Part shown: one piece after another, positions 28,713 through 39,176 of the stretch
How positions within the stretch are numbered: position 1 is the stretch's first letter
Layout: each line of letters opens with the position of its first letter
Assembly: GCA_052171195.1 (NCBI GenBank)
Contig: JBQMZB010000002.1
Coordinates: 1,276 to 65,275 of the forward strand
Length of the DNA stretch: 64,000 nt
From: Bacillales bacterium
Lineage (GTDB): Bacteria; Bacillota_I; Bacilli_A; RFN20; CAG-826
Direction of reading: 5' to 3'
Made by a program: the position numbers and the translations under genes
The notes under the pieces: generated by a model
What the model was told of the DNA's origin: nothing
The model's database searches: none
The model's input: the letters and a program-made list of their open reading frames with translations, nothing else

Positions 28713-28789
28713 GCCTCGTTGGAGAAGCGGCTTAACTCACATCCCTCTCAAGGATGCATTCACGGGTCCGAATCCCGTACGAGGTACCA
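28713..28789 (+). tRNA. tRNA-Glu with CTC anticodon (second Glu isoacceptor; borders the accessory island)
   Basis: Cloverleaf with 3-bp D-stem, closely related to the tRNA-Glu(TTC) at 49037, but the anticodon loop reads CTCTCAA; G1-U72 wobble; CCA encoded. Confidence 0.65.
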
Positions 28790-29242: not shown

Positions 29243-30997
29243 ATGAGCAGTGGTTTTCAATCTCCAATTACAATTAAAGATGCAATAGATAACATCCATA
29301 ATAGACGATTTTTATTACCGGCAATTCAAAGAAAATTTACTTGGTCAAGTAATCAAATTGAGATGCTGTTTGATAGTATTATGCATGGATATCCGATTAA
29401 TTCTTTTATGTTTTGGAAGATAACAGATAATAAAATTAAAAGTGACTATAAATTCTATGAGTTTATAACTAGATATAGAGAATTTTTTTCGGAAAATAAT
29501 AGCGATATTGATACAAAGGGAGTTCCTGATTTCAAAGCAGTCATTGATGGACAACAAAGATTAACAAGCTTATACATTGGCTTAAGAGGTAGTTATGCAT
29601 ATAAAATGCCTAGAAAATGGTGGAAAGATACAGAAGAATGCATTCCTACTAGAGAATTATATTTAAATTTAATTTCACCTATAAATCAAGAATATGATAA
29701 TCAAAAGGAATTTGATTTTAGGTTTCTGTCAAAATTAGATTTAGAGAAATTCGATAAAGATAAAGATACATATTTTTGGTTTAGAGTCGGTGAAGTGTTA
29801 GACCTAGATACTATAAATAAAGTTTATAAATATCTAAATGATAATAAACTAATGGATAATAATTATTCTTCGTATACATTAGTTCAATTATTTCAAGTCA
29901 TTCATAATGACAAGTTAATAAATTATTATCTACAAGAAGAACAAGAAGCTGATAAAGTGCTTGAAATTTTTATTAGGACTAATAGTGGAGGGACACCATT
30001 ATCTTTTTCAGATTTACTTATGTCTATTGCTTCTGCTAATTGGAAACAGATAGATGCTCGTAAGGAAATAGAAAAATTAGTAGAGGAAGTTTATATAATT
30101 GGGCGTCCTGGTTTTATTATTGATAAAGATTTTGTTTTAAAAACTTGTTTAGTGCTCTTTATAGATGATATAAAGTTTAAATTAAAAAATTTTACACATG
30201 AAAATGTTAATGAATTTGAAAATAATTGGGGTAGAGTAAGACAAAGCATAATTGCAGCATTTTCTTTATTCGAATCTTTAGGATTTAATGATAAAACTTT
30301 TAGAGCAAAAAATGCAGCAATTCCAGTAATATATTATATCTACTATAACAATCTAGAAACATCTATTTCTAGTCCAATCTACAAGAATAAAAAAGATAAA
30401 GATAGAATAGCAAAATGGTTAATACTTACGTTTATTAAGTCGGTATTCGGTGGACAAACCGATACCGTTCTAAAGAAAATGAGAGATGTTTTAAAGGAAA
30501 ATTTAAATAAGGACTTTCCGGATAAAGAACTAATGAATGCTTTTAAAAATGATCCAGCAAGAAATTATAGTTTTGATGACGAATTTATAGATGGTTTATT
30601 AGAAGCAGAGAAAGATTCAAATAATGCATATTATATATTGCATTTAATGTATTCGAATTTGGATTTTTCAAACCAAGATTTTCATCAAGACCATTTACAT
30701 CCATCAACCATTTTCACTGACGAGAAAAAGTTTAATAAGTTCATTCCATGTGAAGTACAAGATTTTGCTAAGAAAAGAGAAAACTGGAATGGAGTTGCTA
30801 ATTTACAATTATTAAATGGAAGGCAAAATGAATCTAAGAATGCTAAGTCTCTTAAAGAATGGGCTTATTCGGAAAATAAAACACATGATGATTTATTTCT
30901 ATCTGATGGAATTAGTTTGGAAATAAAAGATTTTAAAGATTTTATTATTGATAGAAAAACAAATATAAAAAAATATATTAAAAGTATTATTGGATAG
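29243..30997 (+). CDS. GmrSD-family type IV (modification-dependent) restriction endonuclease, DUF262 + DUF1524
   Basis: N-terminal DUF262 motifs LPAIQRKFTW and DGQQRLTS; C-terminal DUF1524/HNH-like block HQDHLHPST...NLQLLNGRQNESKNAK. Confidence 0.8.
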   Translation: MSSGFQSPITIKDAIDNIHNRRFLLPAIQRKFTWSSNQIEMLFDSIMHGYPINSFMFWKITDNKIKSDYKFYEFITRYREFFSENNSDIDTKGVPDFKAVIDGQQRLTSLYIGLRGSYAYKMPRKWWKDTEECIPTRELYLNLISPINQEYDNQKEFDFRFLSKLDLEKFDKDKDTYFWFRVGEVLDLDTINKVYKYLNDNKLMDNNYSSYTLVQLFQVIHNDKLINYYLQEEQEADKVLEIFIRTNSGGTPLSFSDLLMSIASANWKQIDARKEIEKLVEEVYIIGRPGFIIDKDFVLKTCLVLFIDDIKFKLKNFTHENVNEFENNWGRVRQSIIAAFSLFESLGFNDKTFRAKNAAIPVIYYIYYNNLETSISSPIYKNKKDKDRIAKWLILTFIKSVFGGQTDTVLKKMRDVLKENLNKDFPDKELMNAFKNDPARNYSFDDEFIDGLLEAEKDSNNAYYILHLMYSNLDFSNQDFHQDHLHPSTIFTDEKKFNKFIPCEVQDFAKKRENWNGVANLQLLNGRQNESKNAKSLKEWAYSENKTHDDLFLSDGISLEIKDFKDFIIDRKTNIKKYIKSIIG

Positions 30998-31426
30998 TTA
31001 AATTATCATCAGACATAGTCCAAAGAAACATCCGCAGCCCAATTGTACATTCATATTTTAAAATTAATAACATGCTACAAAAAAGATAATTTGAGTCATG
31101 TATCAACTCGAATTATCTGGCCAGCAATACATAAAATCTAATTAATCATTCAAACATCATATCTTCTTGTCAGTGCACCATTAATGATGCTCTATTTGTC
31201 ATGCAATTTTAATGTGTTGATTACGATGATGTAGTCATCGCCACTATATTCAAAACATTTCTGTTTTAAAAACTTATTATTGACTTTTTCTAATAGTTAG
31301 TCTCATATTAAGGATACACCATTGAGACATTTTCAATTGATAATCACAATTTAGAAATAAAACTTCTATCAATTATTGATTATTCTCTCAAAATTGATTA
31401 TAATTTACGAGAAAGGATTAATAATT

Positions 31427-32476
31427 ATGAGAAAATTTGATTATTCTAAATTAAAATATCAAGTATGGGATTCTTCAATAATTAATAAAATTGCGCATAT
31501 TCATGAGCTAAAAGGAAGACAAGAACTTTATTTGTCACAAAAACCAGTAGAATTAAATAAATTAGTAGAACTTGTTAAAATTCAAAGTACTGAAGCAAGT
31601 AACGCTATTGAAGGTATAAGAACTACTGATACAAGATTAAAAAAGATTGTTAATGAAATAATAATTCCTAAGAATAGAAATGAAAAAGAAATAGCAGGAT
31701 ATCGAGATGCATTAAACACAATTCATTCAAGTTTTGAATATATTCCATTAACTCCTAACTATATATTACAATTACATCAAATATTATATAGTAAAAATGA
31801 TGAAGTATCATATGGTGGTAAATTTAAAAATACTCAGAATTATATAAGTGCCACTGATAAAAAAGGCAATTTATTTACTTTATTTACTCCAATGTCTCCA
31901 TTTGAAACTCCAATAGCTATTCAAGCATTATGCGATGAATATAATAAAGCTATCGAAAGAAAAGAAGTAGACCCATTAATTTTAATTCCAATATTTATAC
32001 ATGATTTTTTGTGTATTCATCCATTTAACGATGGGAACGGAAGAATGTCTAGATTACTTACTACACTTTTATTATATCGTTCAGGTTATTATGTTGGTAA
32101 ATATATATCACTAGAATTAAAAATTTCTGAACTTAAAGATTTATATTATGATTCGTTATATGAATCACAAATAGGTTGGCATGAAGAAAATGATAATCCA
32201 GCTCCATTTGTAAACTATATATTAAGTATAATTTCAATGGCTTATGATGATTTTGAAAATAAAGTAGAGGTAGTTACTAAAAAACTTAGTGCATATGATA
32301 CTGTTAAAAAAGCAATAGATATGAAACTTGGTAAAATTACTAAATCAGATGTAGCAGAATTATGTCCATTATTATCATTAAGTTCAATTGAAAAAGTATT
32401 AGCTAAAATGGTAGAAGAAGGAAGACTTGAAAAAGGTGGTTCAGGTAAGAATTCATTCTATATTATAAAACTATAA
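31427..32476 (+). CDS. Fic-family protein (AMPylase/adenylyltransferase) with C-terminal winged-helix
   Basis: Fic motif HPFNDGNGRMSRLL (HPFx[DE]GNGRxxR); RBS GAAAGGA before the ATG at 31427. Confidence 0.85.
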   Translation: MRKFDYSKLKYQVWDSSIINKIAHIHELKGRQELYLSQKPVELNKLVELVKIQSTEASNAIEGIRTTDTRLKKIVNEIIIPKNRNEKEIAGYRDALNTIHSSFEYIPLTPNYILQLHQILYSKNDEVSYGGKFKNTQNYISATDKKGNLFTLFTPMSPFETPIAIQALCDEYNKAIERKEVDPLILIPIFIHDFLCIHPFNDGNGRMSRLLTTLLLYRSGYYVGKYISLELKISELKDLYYDSLYESQIGWHEENDNPAPFVNYILSIISMAYDDFENKVEVVTKKLSAYDTVKKAIDMKLGKITKSDVAELCPLLSLSSIEKVLAKMVEEGRLEKGGSGKNSFYIIKL

Positions 32477-33300
32477 CTTTAACTTATTAATACTTTACAT
32501 TTTCGAGATGACTCTCCGCTTCAAGAAACCGAGACGTTATATAAATTAGAAATTTTATAATCATTTAAAATAAATTTAACATCAACTTGTACTTTTCACT
32601 TGTATTTTTGGTGTACAGTATAATTTTATCTAATTTTTCTTTATTTATTTTATTTTATATAAATTGATATTGATTAGTTTGGATGTTTTTTTTAATTAGA
32701 ATATCAAGAAACAGTTTTGCTAATTAATCTAGCATTTTACGATAGAAAAGATATTGATTTAAATATATGTTTATTTTGTACATTTGTTATATGTAATACT
32801 TTTGACTTTATTATATATAACACTTTTTAAGCATAAAATACAAATATTTATTACCACTTAAATTAATATAAGTGGAAAATACCCAAGTTTTAAATAAAAT
32901 AGTAAATATTATAAGAATATTTTTAATTTTACATAAACATATAAAATTAAAATATGCTACAATAATTATGCGCAATGAGAATATTTCTGGGTGTAGATCC
33001 TTCGTTGCGCAAAACTATAGGTATACCCCCTTTTTTATTGATGAACAGCATGTCTACAATTATTACTAAAATAACTTGTGTATTTTCTAATTTTTATTGT
33101 ATACTATAAATGCGCAACGAAGATAACCACGTCATATGGTTCCACCCAAAAAGGTCTAAATAATTAGATCTGAGTAGGATTATGTATACCGATAGTACGA
33201 CGAACGTACTGAAATGAAAGAAGATTATTATTTAATAACAGGGATAATTCTATCTGTTTTACGTTCTTTATCATTTCAATTAGAAAGGAGTATAAGAAAA

Positions 33301-34007
33301 TGAAATACTAATTTTTTGATTTAGAGTGTTCTAATTGTTTTGGAGGTAATAATAAGGTATGTGAATTTGGTGCTATTGTTACAGATGAAAATTTTAAGAT
33401 TGTTAAAAAAATTGATTTACCGATGAATCCTGGTAAAGGTAAATCGTGCAGATTTGATACTTCTATATATAAAAGAAACCCAGGTTTTAAGTGGGCTTAT
33501 GATTTTGATTATTATTTTAATAGTCCTAAGTTTCCTGAATTCTACAAACAAATTAAAAACATTATGGAAGATAAAGATACTGTTGTGTTTGGATATGCTG
33601 TAGATAATGATATTAGATATCTAAATAGTGCTTGTATGCAATATAATCTGAAACCTATATCTTATATTGCATACGATGTTAAATTAATTAAAGAATCTTG
33701 TTTTAAAAAGAAACAAAAAGTTAAAGGTTTAAAAGGAGCTTTTTTAGAATTGTGCGGGTTGAAAAAGTTATTTAGCTTGACACCACATCTTTCTATAGAT
33801 GATTCTAAGATGACGATGATGATTTTTAAGCAAATCTGCAAAAATATGACAATTTCTGTAGTTGAAATTTTAGATTTATGTAATAACTGCAAAATAGATT
33901 CTATTAAATATATAGAAAAATATGAAATACAACAAAAGGAAAAATTATTACATCCAGAAAAATATATTAAAAAAAGAAAAATAAATACAAATTGTAAAAC
34001 CGCTTGA
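33301..34007 (+). pseudogene. DnaQ-like DEDDh 3'-5' exonuclease gene interrupted by an in-frame TAA at codon 4 (or using an unidentified non-canonical start)
   Basis: ATG 33301 with RBS GAAAGGAG, then MKY-TAA-FFDLECSN (Exo I DxE), YAVDNDIRYL (Exo II), HLSIDDSKM (Exo III H-x4-D), all in one frame with the ORF-track ORF 33423..34007. Confidence 0.55.
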
Positions 34008-34267: not shown

Positions 34268-36781
34268 ATGAACTTAGAGTTTAATCTAAAATTATCTTCA
34301 TATAAAGATATTAATGAAGATTTCTTAAATATACTTCGTGATGATGAATATCATGATGTTAAAATATCAACAACTAAAAAAAATATTGAAATAGATAAAA
34401 AAGATTCGAGGTATATCAGCTCTCTAAAAAATGTTAAAATTATTTATAAAAAAGAAGATGGTGGTATTCTTATTTTAATTGGAAACCTTCAATGTGATTT
34501 TAAAGATCCGTTTGGTGGAGCTTTCTTTTTAAAAAAATATGTACAAGAAACTACTGAATTTGAAGATGTAAAAGGAGTTAATGCTAAATTAAAATTTGGT
34601 AATATGTATTTTCCAACATCAATAGAATATATGCGAGATTATATGCAAGATTTGGTAGAAGATCCTAATTTTGAATTTAACATAAGTCAATTTGATGAAT
34701 TTATGGAAATTTTTGAATTCTATAAAAAACTATCTGATGAATTAAATAATAATTTTTCTTATAAAATTAATGGTATTTCTAAAGAATATTACTTTATCCA
34801 ACCTAATGTAAAAGAATTTGACTCTAATTCGGTAAAAGAAGTAAAAGATCAAAATGGAGTTATCAAAGGATATAAAATAGATAATAGTGACTATGTTCTT
34901 TTAAAAAATTATGTCAAAGATCAAGTTAAAGAACTTGTAGATATAAGAATTTCTGGTGGAGCAGATGAAATATCGAGAATAAGAAGAGTTGGTCTAGATA
35001 ATATCTATCTAAGCAATTCCTCAAGAGTTAGTGAAAAAGAAGTTAAATATTTAAAACAGTTCATAATTTATAATATTGTTATTATGAAAAATGAAGTTGT
35101 AATTTCTGGTGAATTAAAATCATCAGCAGATTACAAAGAACGATATGAATATTTAAATCTATATGATATGGGGCAAAAGATAAAAATTGAATCTGTTGAC
35201 AATTCGTTAAGATTAATTAATCAAGGTGCAACTGGCGCTGCTTCAAATTTATTACAATATTTAATTGGTGATGTTAAAATGCCAAATAATATTCATAGAA
35301 CAAGTAAGATTAAAGAAAAATATATGGAAGGTTTAAATGAATCTCAAAGAAAAGCTTTCTTAATGTCTATTGATGGGAGCCCAGTATCACTTATTAAAGG
35401 TCCTCCAGGAACAGGTAAAACACATGTAATAAACTCAATTGTTCAATATATAACAAAAGAATTGGGTGAAAAGGTTATCATATCATCTCAAACTCATATT
35501 GCAATTGATAATGTCTTAGATAAATTGGTGGAAAACTACGATTTAATTATTCCGAATAGAATTACAAACAGAAGAAATAAATATAGTGGTGACTATATTG
35601 ATGATACATTATATAAAATTTGGGGAGTAAATTTTTTTAAATATAATGCAAAATGTTCAGATTTAAAGTTAAAGAAAAATATGGAAGAATCTGTTATAAA
35701 ATTTGATGGTGAAAAAAAATTCTCATATTCAGAAACAAATGAAAGATGTGATTTTTCTGTTATAGGAGCTACAACAACTACTAGCGCAATAGCTGGAAAA
35801 AAAGGGTTAGAAGTTCTTAAAGGTTTTGATTGGTTAATTATAGATGAAGTTTCAAAATGTCCAATTACAGAAGTATTACGATACATTCCTTATGTAAATA
35901 GAATAATTATGGTCGGTGATGATTTCCAATTAGCGCCTTTACTTGAATTTTCTAAAGAAGATGTGAAAGGATTACCATCATATAACGAAGAATTATTTCA
36001 AAAACTTCAAACAATCTATGAACAATCTGTTTTTTCAAAAGTACTTAATAAGGCTAAAGATTCAAATAGATTAGTATTACTAAATGAAAACTATAGGTCA
36101 GTTAATCAAGTATTAAAAACATACAATGTGTTTTATGATGGTGCTCTCAAAGGAAAAAGAGAAGATATATGCCCTTCAAAAGTTCATATATATCAATCTG
36201 GAGATATAGATTATGATTCAAAAGATGTAATGTTTGTTGAAGTGGTTGGAGGACAAGAAGTTAAAGAAGGTACATCAAGAGTTAACGTTCAAGAAATTGA
36301 AGCCACTGCTTATATATTAAAAGATTTAATAAAATACACTATTAACCCTGAAAAAGTTACCGTTTCTGCAATATTCCCGTATGCTGCACAAATTAATCAC
36401 TTTCATAAAAATAATATTCAACTAATTAATCAAGCTAAGAAAGTATTTAAATCTTTCGAGATTGACACTATTGATGCTTTCCAAGGAAAAGAAACAGATA
36501 TAGTTCTTGTTAATACCGTTGTTGCAGATTCATCACAAAAAAACTTTTTAAATGATTTTAGACGAATTAATGTTTCTATGTCAAGAGCGAGAGATAAGTT
36601 AATATTATTTGGAAACAGTATGGTACTTAAAAAGATAAAGATGAAAATAAATGGTGGTCATGAAAGACAATATTTTGAGCAAATAATCAATTATATTTCA
36701 TCACATGGCAATTTTATTAGATATGAAGGAGGAAATGTTAATAGTGGAAATACACGCAAAAGTAAGATTAAACTTGCCTAA
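34268..36781 (+). CDS. Upf1/DNA2-like superfamily-1 helicase with about 370 aa N-terminal domain of unknown function
   Basis: Motif I GPPGTGKTH, Ia SSQTHIAIDNV, II LIIDEVSK, then DAFQGKETDIVLV and VSMSRARDKLILFG (motifs V/VI of Upf1-like helicases); no similarity recognised in the N-terminal third. Confidence 0.8.
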   Translation: MNLEFNLKLSSYKDINEDFLNILRDDEYHDVKISTTKKNIEIDKKDSRYISSLKNVKIIYKKEDGGILILIGNLQCDFKDPFGGAFFLKKYVQETTEFEDVKGVNAKLKFGNMYFPTSIEYMRDYMQDLVEDPNFEFNISQFDEFMEIFEFYKKLSDELNNNFSYKINGISKEYYFIQPNVKEFDSNSVKEVKDQNGVIKGYKIDNSDYVLLKNYVKDQVKELVDIRISGGADEISRIRRVGLDNIYLSNSSRVSEKEVKYLKQFIIYNIVIMKNEVVISGELKSSADYKERYEYLNLYDMGQKIKIESVDNSLRLINQGATGAASNLLQYLIGDVKMPNNIHRTSKIKEKYMEGLNESQRKAFLMSIDGSPVSLIKGPPGTGKTHVINSIVQYITKELGEKVIISSQTHIAIDNVLDKLVENYDLIIPNRITNRRNKYSGDYIDDTLYKIWGVNFFKYNAKCSDLKLKKNMEESVIKFDGEKKFSYSETNERCDFSVIGATTTTSAIAGKKGLEVLKGFDWLIIDEVSKCPITEVLRYIPYVNRIIMVGDDFQLAPLLEFSKEDVKGLPSYNEELFQKLQTIYEQSVFSKVLNKAKDSNRLVLLNENYRSVNQVLKTYNVFYDGALKGKREDICPSKVHIYQSGDIDYDSKDVMFVEVVGGQEVKEGTSRVNVQEIEATAYILKDLIKYTINPEKVTVSAIFPYAAQINHFHKNNIQLINQAKKVFKSFEIDTIDAFQGKETDIVLVNTVVADSSQKNFLNDFRRINVSMSRARDKLILFGNSMVLKKIKMKINGGHERQYFEQIINYISSHGNFIRYEGGNVNSGNTRKSKIKLA

Positions 36782-38192
36782 AACTTTGTATAAATTAACT
36801 TTAAAATACAATACTTTTGAAAAAGCTACATATGATTCGTATATAATTGCTTGTTTAGTTGCAAATACTAAAAAAGAAGAACAAGCTTATAAATATATAG
36901 ATGAAATTACAGGTAAAGGATCATTAAATTCTCATTTTAAAAAGCTATATGATAGTATTTCGAAATTTACAAAAGATCAGATAAATGATATTCTTGTAAA
37001 TTCCTTATTTCCAATCACTGTTATAAATAAAGAACATTGTTTTGAGTACTATCAAATATTTGATGTAACAAAAATGGGGAACAAAGTCTATGAAGGGAAT
37101 CTTATTGACAACCTAGAAGATATTAGAAAAATAATTTTACCTGTTGATAAAGATATTAAATTTGTAAGTTTAGATTATATTCAAGAAGATGGTGAATTAA
37201 AACGTGATAATTACAACGCGATATTTAGTAAAGAAGGAATAAAAGTTGATCTTTTAGATGGAAAGTATTGTTCAATAAGTAAGGAAGATTTTTCTACTGT
37301 ATATAAAAATGATATTGATACATTAGATGGTTATTTAGGATCTATAGGAGAAACTATATCTGATGGAAACTGGAATGTCCTTTCTAAAGAAATTATAAAT
37401 ACTTTTAAAAATGAACGATATAAATTTAACGATTCTAAAGGTAGACATTGTGTTTTAACAAATGATTTTATTAAAACGTACGAAATTATCAAGGTATTTG
37501 ATTTGTATTTTTACAAACGAAACAAATTTATGTTCGATAAAAATAGTAAAGCACTTTGTGAAGATGCGGTAGAATATCTTTTCAGCTCTAAAAATATCAA
37601 CGAATATAAAACAAAATATTTAATAAACTTATTATCTTATGTTGATGATAAAATTAAACAACAAGTTGTTCAGTATATATTAGATAGAAAAGATTCTAAA
37701 GAAATAAGCCAACTCGGATTAAGTTTAATTAAATCAGGTTTAGAAAAGGGATGGGAAAAAGATATTCTTATTTCAATTAAGAAACAAATTTCATCATCAG
37801 ACTTACAATATCTTTATAGATTAAATAAAGATTTAGGATTTGAAGTAGAGGATTTACTTAATATTGATAAAACCGATCTAAACGAAGAAGACTTAAAGAA
37901 AATAAACAAATATTTATGCGACAAAGAAAATATATTAAGACAAATAAATTTATGGATTGGTGAAATTACGAATTCAGGTATTAGAGAACAGATTAAAGCT
38001 TTAAAAAAATCTGATCTTAAAATTAGAGTTAAAAAATTTGTTGATAAGCGTACTGGACATAATAAGTTAGATTATAAAAGTATGGATATGAATAGACTTA
38101 AAAAAGAATATGAAGAAATTAAATACTTCTATAATGAAGATTTTAATTTAATTAAAAAAGAAATTTCAAAACTAAATGTGCATTCTGTATAA
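36705..38192 (+). CDS. Hypothetical protein, partner 2 of the helicase module (overlaps the helicase 3' end)
   Basis: 495 aa ORF overlapping the helicase stop by about 75 nt; strong AAGGAGG inside the overlap, so the real start is probably at about 36717-36729; no recognisable domain. Confidence 0.5.
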   Translation: MAILLDMKEEMLIVEIHAKVRLNLPKTLYKLTLKYNTFEKATYDSYIIACLVANTKKEEQAYKYIDEITGKGSLNSHFKKLYDSISKFTKDQINDILVNSLFPITVINKEHCFEYYQIFDVTKMGNKVYEGNLIDNLEDIRKIILPVDKDIKFVSLDYIQEDGELKRDNYNAIFSKEGIKVDLLDGKYCSISKEDFSTVYKNDIDTLDGYLGSIGETISDGNWNVLSKEIINTFKNERYKFNDSKGRHCVLTNDFIKTYEIIKVFDLYFYKRNKFMFDKNSKALCEDAVEYLFSSKNINEYKTKYLINLLSYVDDKIKQQVVQYILDRKDSKEISQLGLSLIKSGLEKGWEKDILISIKKQISSSDLQYLYRLNKDLGFEVEDLLNIDKTDLNEEDLKKINKYLCDKENILRQINLWIGEITNSGIREQIKALKKSDLKIRVKKFVDKRTGHNKLDYKSMDMNRLKKEYEEIKYFYNEDFNLIKKEISKLNVHSV

Positions 38193-38387
38193 AATGATAC
38201 TTATAATAATTAATAAATAACAACCTTAATAAAAACGTTGTTTAAATTTTACATCATTGATGTATTGTATTACATTGTTCTATAACAAATGATAAAATAT
38301 TATATAATATATTTAATAATTATATTTCTTTAATTATAATTTATTAAGAAATAATAAATAAATAAATAAATACAAAAGGAAATTATT

Positions 38388-39176
38388 ATGATTACATGTG
38401 AACCAACTAAAAATTTATCAGGAATAATTGTCAGAGGTACTATGGATGATTTTGAAGAATTAGTTGATAGTATCCATAGAATGGCCATAGGTGATGTTCT
38501 TGAAAAACCTAAAAATATTGATTATTATTACGAAATAAAAAATAGACTATTAGGTTTATGCTACGATATTAGAAAAGCTGCGATGGGACATAGGGATGTA
38601 GAACTTGTTGACGTACATTTCAGCGAATTTTTAAATGTATATAATAAAAATAAATTACCTAAGAAAGAAATATATTTTTCATTTAATATTATAATTACAG
38701 AGGCTTTATTTCTTGCATTAGCTGTACCTGAAATTTATCAAAGACAACGTTTATGTTACAGTGGATTCCCTAAAAGTATTCCTCCAAAATATAATTTAAA
38801 AGCACCTGAATGTTATCTTTTTTACAAAGATAGAGCATTAATTAATTCGTTATTAACTAAATTCCTTGTTGTTATCGGTAAAATACTTGGAGAAGAAGAA
38901 TTTTATAAGTTGTATAGTAAATTAGATTATGATTATATGTATATTTTTCATGATTATTTTACACCTTATGTTGATAAATGTAATTTAGAGTATTTAAATA
39001 CTCCATATGAAAAAAGAAAAACAAAACTTAAGCATATTATGAAGAGATTTATGAGGAATAATGAATCTTATATATCATTTAAAAATAAATTTGAATATCT
39101 AGCCAGAATAGATAAATGTAATGTAAATGATTTAAGCCAGTACTATTTCATTTATCCTTATGTTATAGAATGGTAA
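38388..39176 (+). CDS. Hypothetical protein, partner 3 of the helicase module
   Basis: 262 aa ORF with RBS AAAGGAAA; one internal hydrophobic helix; no recognisable domain. Confidence 0.5.
   Translation: MITCEPTKNLSGIIVRGTMDDFEELVDSIHRMAIGDVLEKPKNIDYYYEIKNRLLGLCYDIRKAAMGHRDVELVDVHFSEFLNVYNKNKLPKKEIYFSFNIIITEALFLALAVPEIYQRQRLCYSGFPKSIPPKYNLKAPECYLFYKDRALINSLLTKFLVVIGKILGEEEFYKLYSKLDYDYMYIFHDYFTPYVDKCNLEYLNTPYEKRKTKLKHIMKRFMRNNESYISFKNKFEYLARIDKCNVNDLSQYYFIYPYVIEW

Follow-up and report, generated by a model that had tools for sequence, protein, structure and literature searches.

The window considered here is a 64,000-nucleotide (nt) stretch of contig JBQMZB010000002.1 (assembly GCA_052171195.1) from a Bacillales bacterium; its G+C content is very low, ~23%, and genetic code 11 reads well. 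Within it lies a helicase-based gene module that was originally predicted to be a three-gene defence system. All three of the open reading frames (ORFs) on which that prediction was built, of 837, 495 (36705-38192, under a mechanical start rule), and 262 amino acids (aa), are present where they had been reported and share the forward strand. The first encodes a Upf1-like helicase of superfamily 1B (SF1B), the second, hereafter ORF2, is its overlapping partner, and the third encodes a DUF6904 protein. The helicase and ORF2 turn out to be a conserved pair, and the recurrent companion of this pair lies upstream, as the decayed remnant of a DEDDh exonuclease gene (Table 1).

Table 1. Features of the helicase module, of its surroundings in the window, and of three accessory gene sets beside the pair in other loci
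Feature	Coordinates	Strand	Remarks
Upf1-like SF1B helicase	34268-36781	+	837 aa; stop TAA 36779-36781
Shine-Dalgarno sequence AAGGAGG	36726-36732	+	within the helicase coding region; 11 nt before the ORF2 GTG; read from the sequence
ORF2	36744-38192	+	invariant partner; 482 aa from GTG 36744; beta-rich N-terminal half, helical C-terminal half
DEDDh (RNase T-type) 3'-5' exonuclease remnant	33300-34007	+	TAA at codon 4; C-terminus missing; tblastn, local hidden Markov model (HMM)
DUF6904 gene	38388-39176	+	Pfam PF21845; neighbour, not module component
tRNA-Glu(ctc)	28713-28789	+	island left edge, between gltX and the island; ARAGORN, Rfam
GmrSD/HEC-05 gene	29243-30997		island member; Pfam and PADLOC
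Fic/SoFic-like gene	31376-32476		island member; Pfam and PADLOC
Exonuclease III gene	39359-40123		after the island; Pfam and PADLOC on neighbours
CARF and sigma-70-like gene pair	L028 3854-5400		directly upstream of the helicase
477-aa protein	L006 4080-5513		directly upstream; two invariant Rx4H motifs (R86-H91, R256-H261 in L006)
ThiC-like radical-SAM (S-adenosylmethionine) and 185-aa proteins	L032 3741-5451; L037 10384-11490; L039 2482-4196		three loci

The helicase is recognised by the Pfam profiles AAA_11 (4.4e-25) and AAA_12 (1.4e-31), which place it among the Upf1-like SF1B helicases, and it carries the motifs that had been claimed for it, namely GPPGTGKT at aa 378, DEVSK at aa 526, AFQGKE at aa 737, and SMSRARDKL at aa 770. 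Its nearest solved relatives are Upf1 (9.5e-26), Sen1 and DNA2 (2.5e-21), and IGHMBP2, and NCBIfam matches its core, always below threshold, to IGHMBP2-family, “PLuB”, and ProA helicases. Specifically, two RecA domains occupy aa ~350-815, with Walker A at K384 and Walker B at D526/E527, and the C-terminus follows ~25 aa past motif VI. Ahead of this core, aa ~160-345 appear to form a barrel and stalk resembling those of Sen1, SETX, and ZNFX1, and aa 1-135 form a beta-rich domain of no recognised type. The suggestion of a novel N-terminal domain is not borne out in full, part of the region probably being the normal accessory barrel and stalk of Upf1-type enzymes.

The overlap between the helicase stop and the ORF2 start is real, with the AAGGAGG inside it as described, and the two genes are probably translationally coupled. 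The mechanical start at 36705 is to be replaced by the GTG at 36744, the start found in homologues and in the NCBI annotation, which shortens the protein from 495 to 482 aa and leaves a 38-nt out-of-frame overlap. Both partners of the helicase had been called domain-less; this holds for ORF2, which has no match in Pfam, PADLOC, NCBIfam, or PHROGs, and fails for the 262-aa ORF, which is Pfam DUF6904. Likewise, ORF2 matches no sequence in the PDB and contains no recognisable catalytic motif, and its structure model (predicted local distance difference test, pLDDT, 90.9) has no convincing structural match there. An HxKxxxxD motif is absent from the helicase, ORF2, and the DUF6904 protein. Homologues of ORF2 fall into 97 clusters at 90% identity, nearly all of them ~480 aa long and free of Pfam domains, and when 1.84 billion representatives were searched exhaustively with a profile, only 128 clusters came back, each of that length or a fragment, with 0 fusions.

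Homologous loci were gathered through ORF2 homologues (12 loci) and by scanning a single genome for each species (38 loci), giving 51 with the window; single loci are referred to below by L numbers. A full-length helicase orthologue, N-terminal region included, lies directly upstream of ORF2 in 47/47 loci in which ORF2 is complete, and at the called starts the overlap is 32-41 nt in all 47 of these ORF2-seeded loci. The reverse look-up, from helicase orthologues, found ORF2 in 4/4 loci, again with an overlap (38-41 nt). The helicase and the ORF of 495, or rather 482, aa thus constitute a conserved overlapping pair, and since a DUF6904 homologue occurs in 0/50 of the other loci, the conserved unit is this pair and not the trio. 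Helicase orthologues were aligned from a full-length search, used because a search for homologues of the N-terminal region yielded mostly fragments; they are 57-80% identical, and at E<=1e-100 they make up more than 400 clusters. Over 42 loci, mean identity is 60% for the helicase versus 39% for ORF2, with the helicase higher in every locus, and within the helicase it is 44% for aa 1-135 versus 66% for the core. In ORF2, the N-terminus, with a GKGSLN loop, is a conserved part.

The pair is rare and patchy, being found in 38 of 185,579 species representatives, and searches of the phage and plasmid collections did not find it. Its carriers are Bacillota-type organisms of the gut and rumen, from the Clostridia, Bacilli, Acholeplasmataceae, Anaeroplasmataceae, and Christensenellales, plus a few metagenome-assembled genomes (MAGs) binned elsewhere. 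Two carriers are cultured. Acholeplasma laidlawii (L001; CP103951, 1420011-1437444) has an intact series of C1 (a small accessory family, see below), viperin, helicase, ORF2, and DEDDh genes beside a DISARM-like drmC, and [Mycoplasma] testudinis (L051; JHXT01000011), which uses code 4, has intact helicase, ORF2, and DEDDh genes.

The gene originally counted as the third of the module is a clear member of the DUF6904 family (Pfam PF21845, 3.8e-46, 158.2 bits where the cut-off is 27, over all 238 positions of the profile), and NCBI likewise names its product a DUF6904 family protein. Co-occurrence in other genomes had been proposed as the check on the trio, and the third gene fails it, given that DUF6904 accompanies the pair in 1/51 loci, namely the window alone. 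A 195-nt A+T-rich spacer with promoter-like hexamers separates it from ORF2, and it seems to be transcribed on its own. The protein matches no PDB sequence, and neither the phage nor the plasmid collection contains a homologue; a pattern scan of metagenomes returned no relative, and the literature searched does not mention it.

The module's boundaries were also drawn wrongly on the other side, where the recurrent third component, in this lineage a DEDDh exonuclease encoded upstream of 34268-39176 and decayed in the window, had been missed. Its frame opens with an ATG at 33300, but the fourth codon is an in-frame stop (TAA, 33309-33311) directly in front of motif I (FFDLE): the window has MKY*FFDLEC, and homologues have MKYLFFD. 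The frame closes at 34007, and the final ~108 aa of its closest homologue, the protein of L010, have no equivalent in it. In tblastn searches, aa 6-226 of that 334-aa protein correspond to window positions 33312-33974 at 54% identity (E 2e-86), and the RNase_T plus DEDDh_C protein of L008 also finds the remnant (E 1e-24). A local DEDDh HMM matches it at 5e-77, and the matches of PADLOC DEDDh and of a PHROG exonuclease are weak. The NCBI annotation has only an internal 194-aa hypothetical protein here (33423-34007); the first usable ATG, at 33423, falls after motif I, and an intact set of exonuclease motifs I-III is not present in the window. Because the upstream DEDDh homologue carries this TAA and has lost its C-terminus, the window is best described as a DEDDh-helicase-ORF2 form with a decayed exonuclease, to which an assembly error is the only alternative.

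Accessory families were defined by clustering the ORFs that flank the pair and re-searching the loci with HMMs built from the clusters. The recurrent ones share the strand of the core genes and often lie only a few bases away. The commonest is the DEDDh exonuclease, an RNase_T plus DEDDh_C protein found in 14 of the first 51 loci and in L051 and L052, with intact homologues matching PADLOC DEDDh at 1.2e-10. Its gene overlaps the helicase start in L008 and L013, stands 14 nt before the helicase in L010, follows ORF2 by 4-18 nt in L001, L015, L020, and L024, or lies further upstream. In another example, seven loci (L001, L014, L027, L029, L035, L044, and L049) encode a prokaryotic viperin (pVip), a radical-SAM protein of ~285 aa that scores 250.8 bits against a cut-off of 180 for NCBIfam viperin_w_prok and 4.9e-73 for PADLOC pVip; in L001, L027, and L029, its end lies 3-10 nt inside the helicase start.

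Ten loci (L028, L032, L037, L038, L039, L044, L045, L048, L049, and L050) carry a two-gene set directly upstream of the helicase, consisting of a CARF-only protein of ~210 aa (PADLOC CARF2, 7e-78) and, beside it, a sigma-70-like protein of ~295 aa with a C-terminal helix-turn-helix and weak similarity to sigma-70 regions 3-4 (E 3e-5, far below cut-off). This set may act as a relay from cyclic oligoadenylate to transcription. Six distinct loci (L006, L014, L017, L018, L053, and L054) have the 477-aa protein directly upstream, and its two invariant Rx4H motifs are suggestive of a candidate tandem HEPN RNase. The ThiC-like radical-SAM enzyme matches Pfam ThiC_Rad_SAM at 3e-92 and does not reach the NCBIfam ThiC cut-offs; its product might be a modified nucleotide or base, and it is unusual to meet a ThiC homologue in an operon of this kind. 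Two small families, of ~140 and ~115 aa, were found in 12 and 10, respectively, of the 51 loci gathered first and have no family assignment, and scattered loci have NYN plus OST-HTH, ADP-ribosylglycohydrolase, or Fic proteins. Two further ideas about these genes were rejected. Hidden homology among the accessory families, for example of the small C1 or C2 proteins with the DEDDh C-terminal domain or part of the 477-aa protein, is not seen in pairwise hhalign comparisons, all of which gave probabilities of at most 2%. A DNA-modification pathway of the queuosine or Dpd type, with QueC, QueD, QueE, or FolE suspected behind the small, 210-aa, 295-aa, and radical-SAM genes, was dropped when Pfam, NCBIfam, and PADLOC returned viperin, CARF, sigma-like, and ThiC-like assignments.

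The genes flanking the pair vary between loci, and many have a bearing on defence. Matches to defence models within 3 kb include DrmC, Hhe, HerA, DRT, GajB, SoFic, mad3/8, IetA, and WYL, and further neighbours include SLFN/AlbA ATPases, toxin-antitoxin pairs, SNF2/methylase modules, and GmrSD. In the window, the GmrSD-like and Fic genes named as neighbours by the original prediction are confirmed as PADLOC HEC-05 (8e-206) and SoFic (2.7e-38), so that the pair sits among defence genes both here and in other genomes. Fic-family genes lie near the pair in four loci (the window; L033, 7059-8117; L045, 1873-2928; L054, 12917-13435) and GmrSD-type genes in two (the window; L052, 12729-14438).

The island of the window is ~10.5 kb long and comprises the GmrSD/HEC-05 gene, the Fic/SoFic-like gene, the helicase module, and the DUF6904 gene. 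Its ends show no direct repeats of the kind expected at att sites, and no integrase gene was found. An ORF-free stretch of 824 bp (32477-33299), with patches that are locally richer in G+C, separates the Fic gene from the DEDDh remnant and may be the debris of lost genes. It includes a hairpin-like gcgcaa...ttgcgc at 32970-33010, with its partial reverse complement at 33112-33122; Rfam has no match to a structured RNA in this stretch, and its fold z-score of -1.86 is not significant.

The reading favoured here, at a probability of roughly 0.55, is that the window contains a single copy of a helicase-based defence module of Bacillota, rare and undescribed, in its DEDDh-helicase-ORF2 form with the DEDDh gene inactivated, and that the module possibly acts on RNA. 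That the pair serves in defence against phages or other mobile elements is reasonably probable from gene context, and it is the best reading because defence genes surround the pair and because viperin and CARF genes are directly linked to it in operons. The target and the division of labour are more doubtful: RNA is tentatively suggested by the Upf1/Sen1-type core and by partners such as viperin, NYN plus OST-HTH, Rx4H, and RNase T-family DEDDh proteins. In a working model inferred at every step, the helicase and ORF2 would form a complex at a ratio fixed by coupled translation, and the ATP-driven 5'-3' motor would load on the nucleic acid of the invader, possibly RNA. The faster-evolving parts, namely ORF2 and the N-terminal domain of the helicase, would provide sensing or specificity, and an exchangeable nuclease or viperin would then execute or reinforce a block to phage gene expression.

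A bolder and rather unlikely extension would make the pair the core of a new anti-phage family acting on phage RNA, a bacterial counterpart of surveillance of the Upf1/MOV10/ZNFX1 type. In it, ORF2 would be the sensor, the effectors would be interchangeable (an ISG20-like DEDDh enzyme, a tandem Rx4H RNase, a NYN RNase, or viperin), some lineages would add a CARF/sigma relay, and the whole would be inducible, with parallels to interferon-stimulated genes.

Several points weigh against the favoured reading of the module. The defence role is assigned through guilt by association, and the density of PADLOC matches among the neighbours is a qualitative observation; the accessory genes could have defence roles of their own and share only their location with the pair. 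The helicase could work on either DNA or RNA, since Upf1-like helicases include the DNA enzymes DNA2 and IGHMBP2, and DEDDh enzymes can likewise act on DNA or RNA. The role of ORF2 is a guess, since it offers no recognisable active site or fold relative. The HEPN reading of the 477-aa protein comes solely from its two Rx4H motifs; the protein has no match in any library searched, and profile searches of PDB sequences and Pfam with it came back empty. Most loci derive from MAGs, in which binning or assembly errors are possible, and the TAA at codon 4 of the window's exonuclease could itself be an error. Finally, its exonuclease being broken, the copy in the window may have lost activity or may act in another way.

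An alternative is that the pair is not immune at all and serves the cell or a mobile element, for instance in RNA turnover or quality control, in repair, or in maintaining an integrated element, so that it would sit in variable regions merely as an accessory. The helicase is indeed strongly conserved, in the manner of housekeeping enzymes, its relatives Upf1, Sen1, and DNA2 have cellular roles, and transposase and recombinase genes lie near the pair in some loci. However, few species carry the pair, and these are scattered over classes; it is missing from the phage and plasmid collections, its flanks change between loci, and the operons that it shares with pVip and CARF proteins contain dedicated antiviral components. 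A non-immune role is unlikely.

A second alternative starts from the CARF-only and sigma-70-like genes found directly upstream of the helicase in ten loci, and holds that the pair is an inducible cyclic-oligoadenylate effector, which the CARF protein and sigma-like factor would switch on, together with the neighbouring viperin or exonuclease genes, after sensing by type III CRISPR or a similar system. However, most loci, the window included, lack a CARF or sigma-like gene, and the sigma assignment is itself weak. Among the window proteins scanned between 26982 and 40123, neither Pfam nor PADLOC found a CARF or SAVED domain such as a cyclic-oligoadenylate ancillary module would have. This explanation is improbable for the pair in general, and because most loci lack these genes such a relay would be at best a lineage-specific layer.

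It is very improbable that the pair is Mokosh of type I or II, or a degenerate form of it. Mokosh combines a COG1112 helicase with a phospholipase D (PLD) nuclease, as MkoA and MkoB in type I and as MkoC in type II, and the type I helicase protein also has a Ser/Thr kinase domain (Millman et al. 2022). Both helicases are Upf1-like, and in PADLOC the helicase core of the pair matches MkoA (1.3e-70 and 1.5e-57) and MkoC (1.2e-31). However, the MkoA match is confined to this core (aa 275-813 against profile positions 540-1101), and no kinase or PLD domain appears in any Pfam or PADLOC match. For type I, there is no adjoining PLD gene for MkoB and no kinase in the Pfam scan of the helicase; for type II, there is no C-terminal PLD domain and no HKD motif, and the MkoC match covers helicase positions only. 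ORF2 has no MkoB match, and the invariant partner in all 51 loci is a different protein, unrelated to MkoB. The least tenable model, a single three-gene defence operon of the helicase, ORF2, and DUF6904, can appeal to consecutive genes on one strand with no terminator predicted between the last two, and is contradicted by the co-occurrence data, the spacer with its promoter-like hexamers, and recurrent partner genes that differ from DUF6904.

If the favoured reading of a defence module is right, the pair would represent the second bacterial defence family built on a Upf1-type helicase, after Mokosh, and its obligatory partner would bring a fold that is confidently predicted and lacks a convincing PDB relative. 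The viperin, DEDDh, and CARF/sigma-like genes in its operons would join chain-terminator chemistry, ISG20-like exonucleases, and cyclic-nucleotide signalling, which are now separate themes, and the core would be a compact model of an SF1B motor that passes its target to exchangeable effectors. The cultured carriers A. laidlawii and [M.] testudinis make the idea testable. For the window itself, the module is real, its boundaries had been misplaced, and the local exonuclease has been lost.

With respect to known systems, the claim that the genes fit no named helicase system stands within the libraries searched, ORF2 being unmatched in PADLOC 2.0, NCBIfam, Pfam, and PHROGs. The other helicase systems of PADLOC 2.0 (Hachiman, Gabija, Nhi, Hna, Zorya, Druantia, Shango, DISARM, and Dpd) are not matched by the helicase with its partner; beyond MkoA and MkoC, the helicase gives weak, partial P-loop matches (DpdJ, 4e-9 over 60 aa; PDC-S37, PDC-S68, mad8, and IetA), and ORF2 gives none. 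The literature searched, on Upf1-like helicases with DEDDh, CARF, or viperin and on COG1112, Mokosh, and “PLuB”, does not describe the pair. Hachiman and similar two-gene helicase/effector systems resemble the pair in having two genes (in Hachiman, the HamA nuclease and the HamB helicase), with a partner in which no domain was recognised at first description, and in a likely logic by which a helicase sensor controls an effector.

Among eukaryotic proteins, UPF1, MOV10, ZNFX1, and SETX invite comparison, the nearest solved cores and accessory subdomains being those of Upf1, Sen1/SETX, and ZNFX1. The viperin and DEDDh operon partners of related loci are enzymes of the same classes as human viperin and ISG20, an analogy of parts only, and eukaryotes have no counterpart of ORF2. 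Bacterial ISG20-like DEDDh enzymes have recently been reported to defend against RNA phages (PMC13344964). The pVip proteins of the seven pair-bearing loci are bona fide members of their family, three of them encoded across the helicase start; however, the pVips of PADLOC stand alone or with kinases rather than with a helicase pair, and pVip is absent from the window and from most loci.

The closest parallel remains Mokosh, for which a target in RNA or in replication intermediates has been hypothesised. Both take a Upf1-like (COG1112) SF1 helicase as the base of a defence-island module, and in both a nuclease partner is usual. Unlike Mokosh, the pair lacks a PLD nuclease and a Ser/Thr kinase, has another N-terminal region and an unrelated partner of ~480 aa, and is confined to Bacillota-type organisms of the gut and rumen; its nuclease, when present, is an exchangeable DEDDh enzyme, or an Rx4H or NYN protein. 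Taken together, the helicase-partner module in a defence island stands as an apparently undescribed system, with Mokosh as its nearest named relative.

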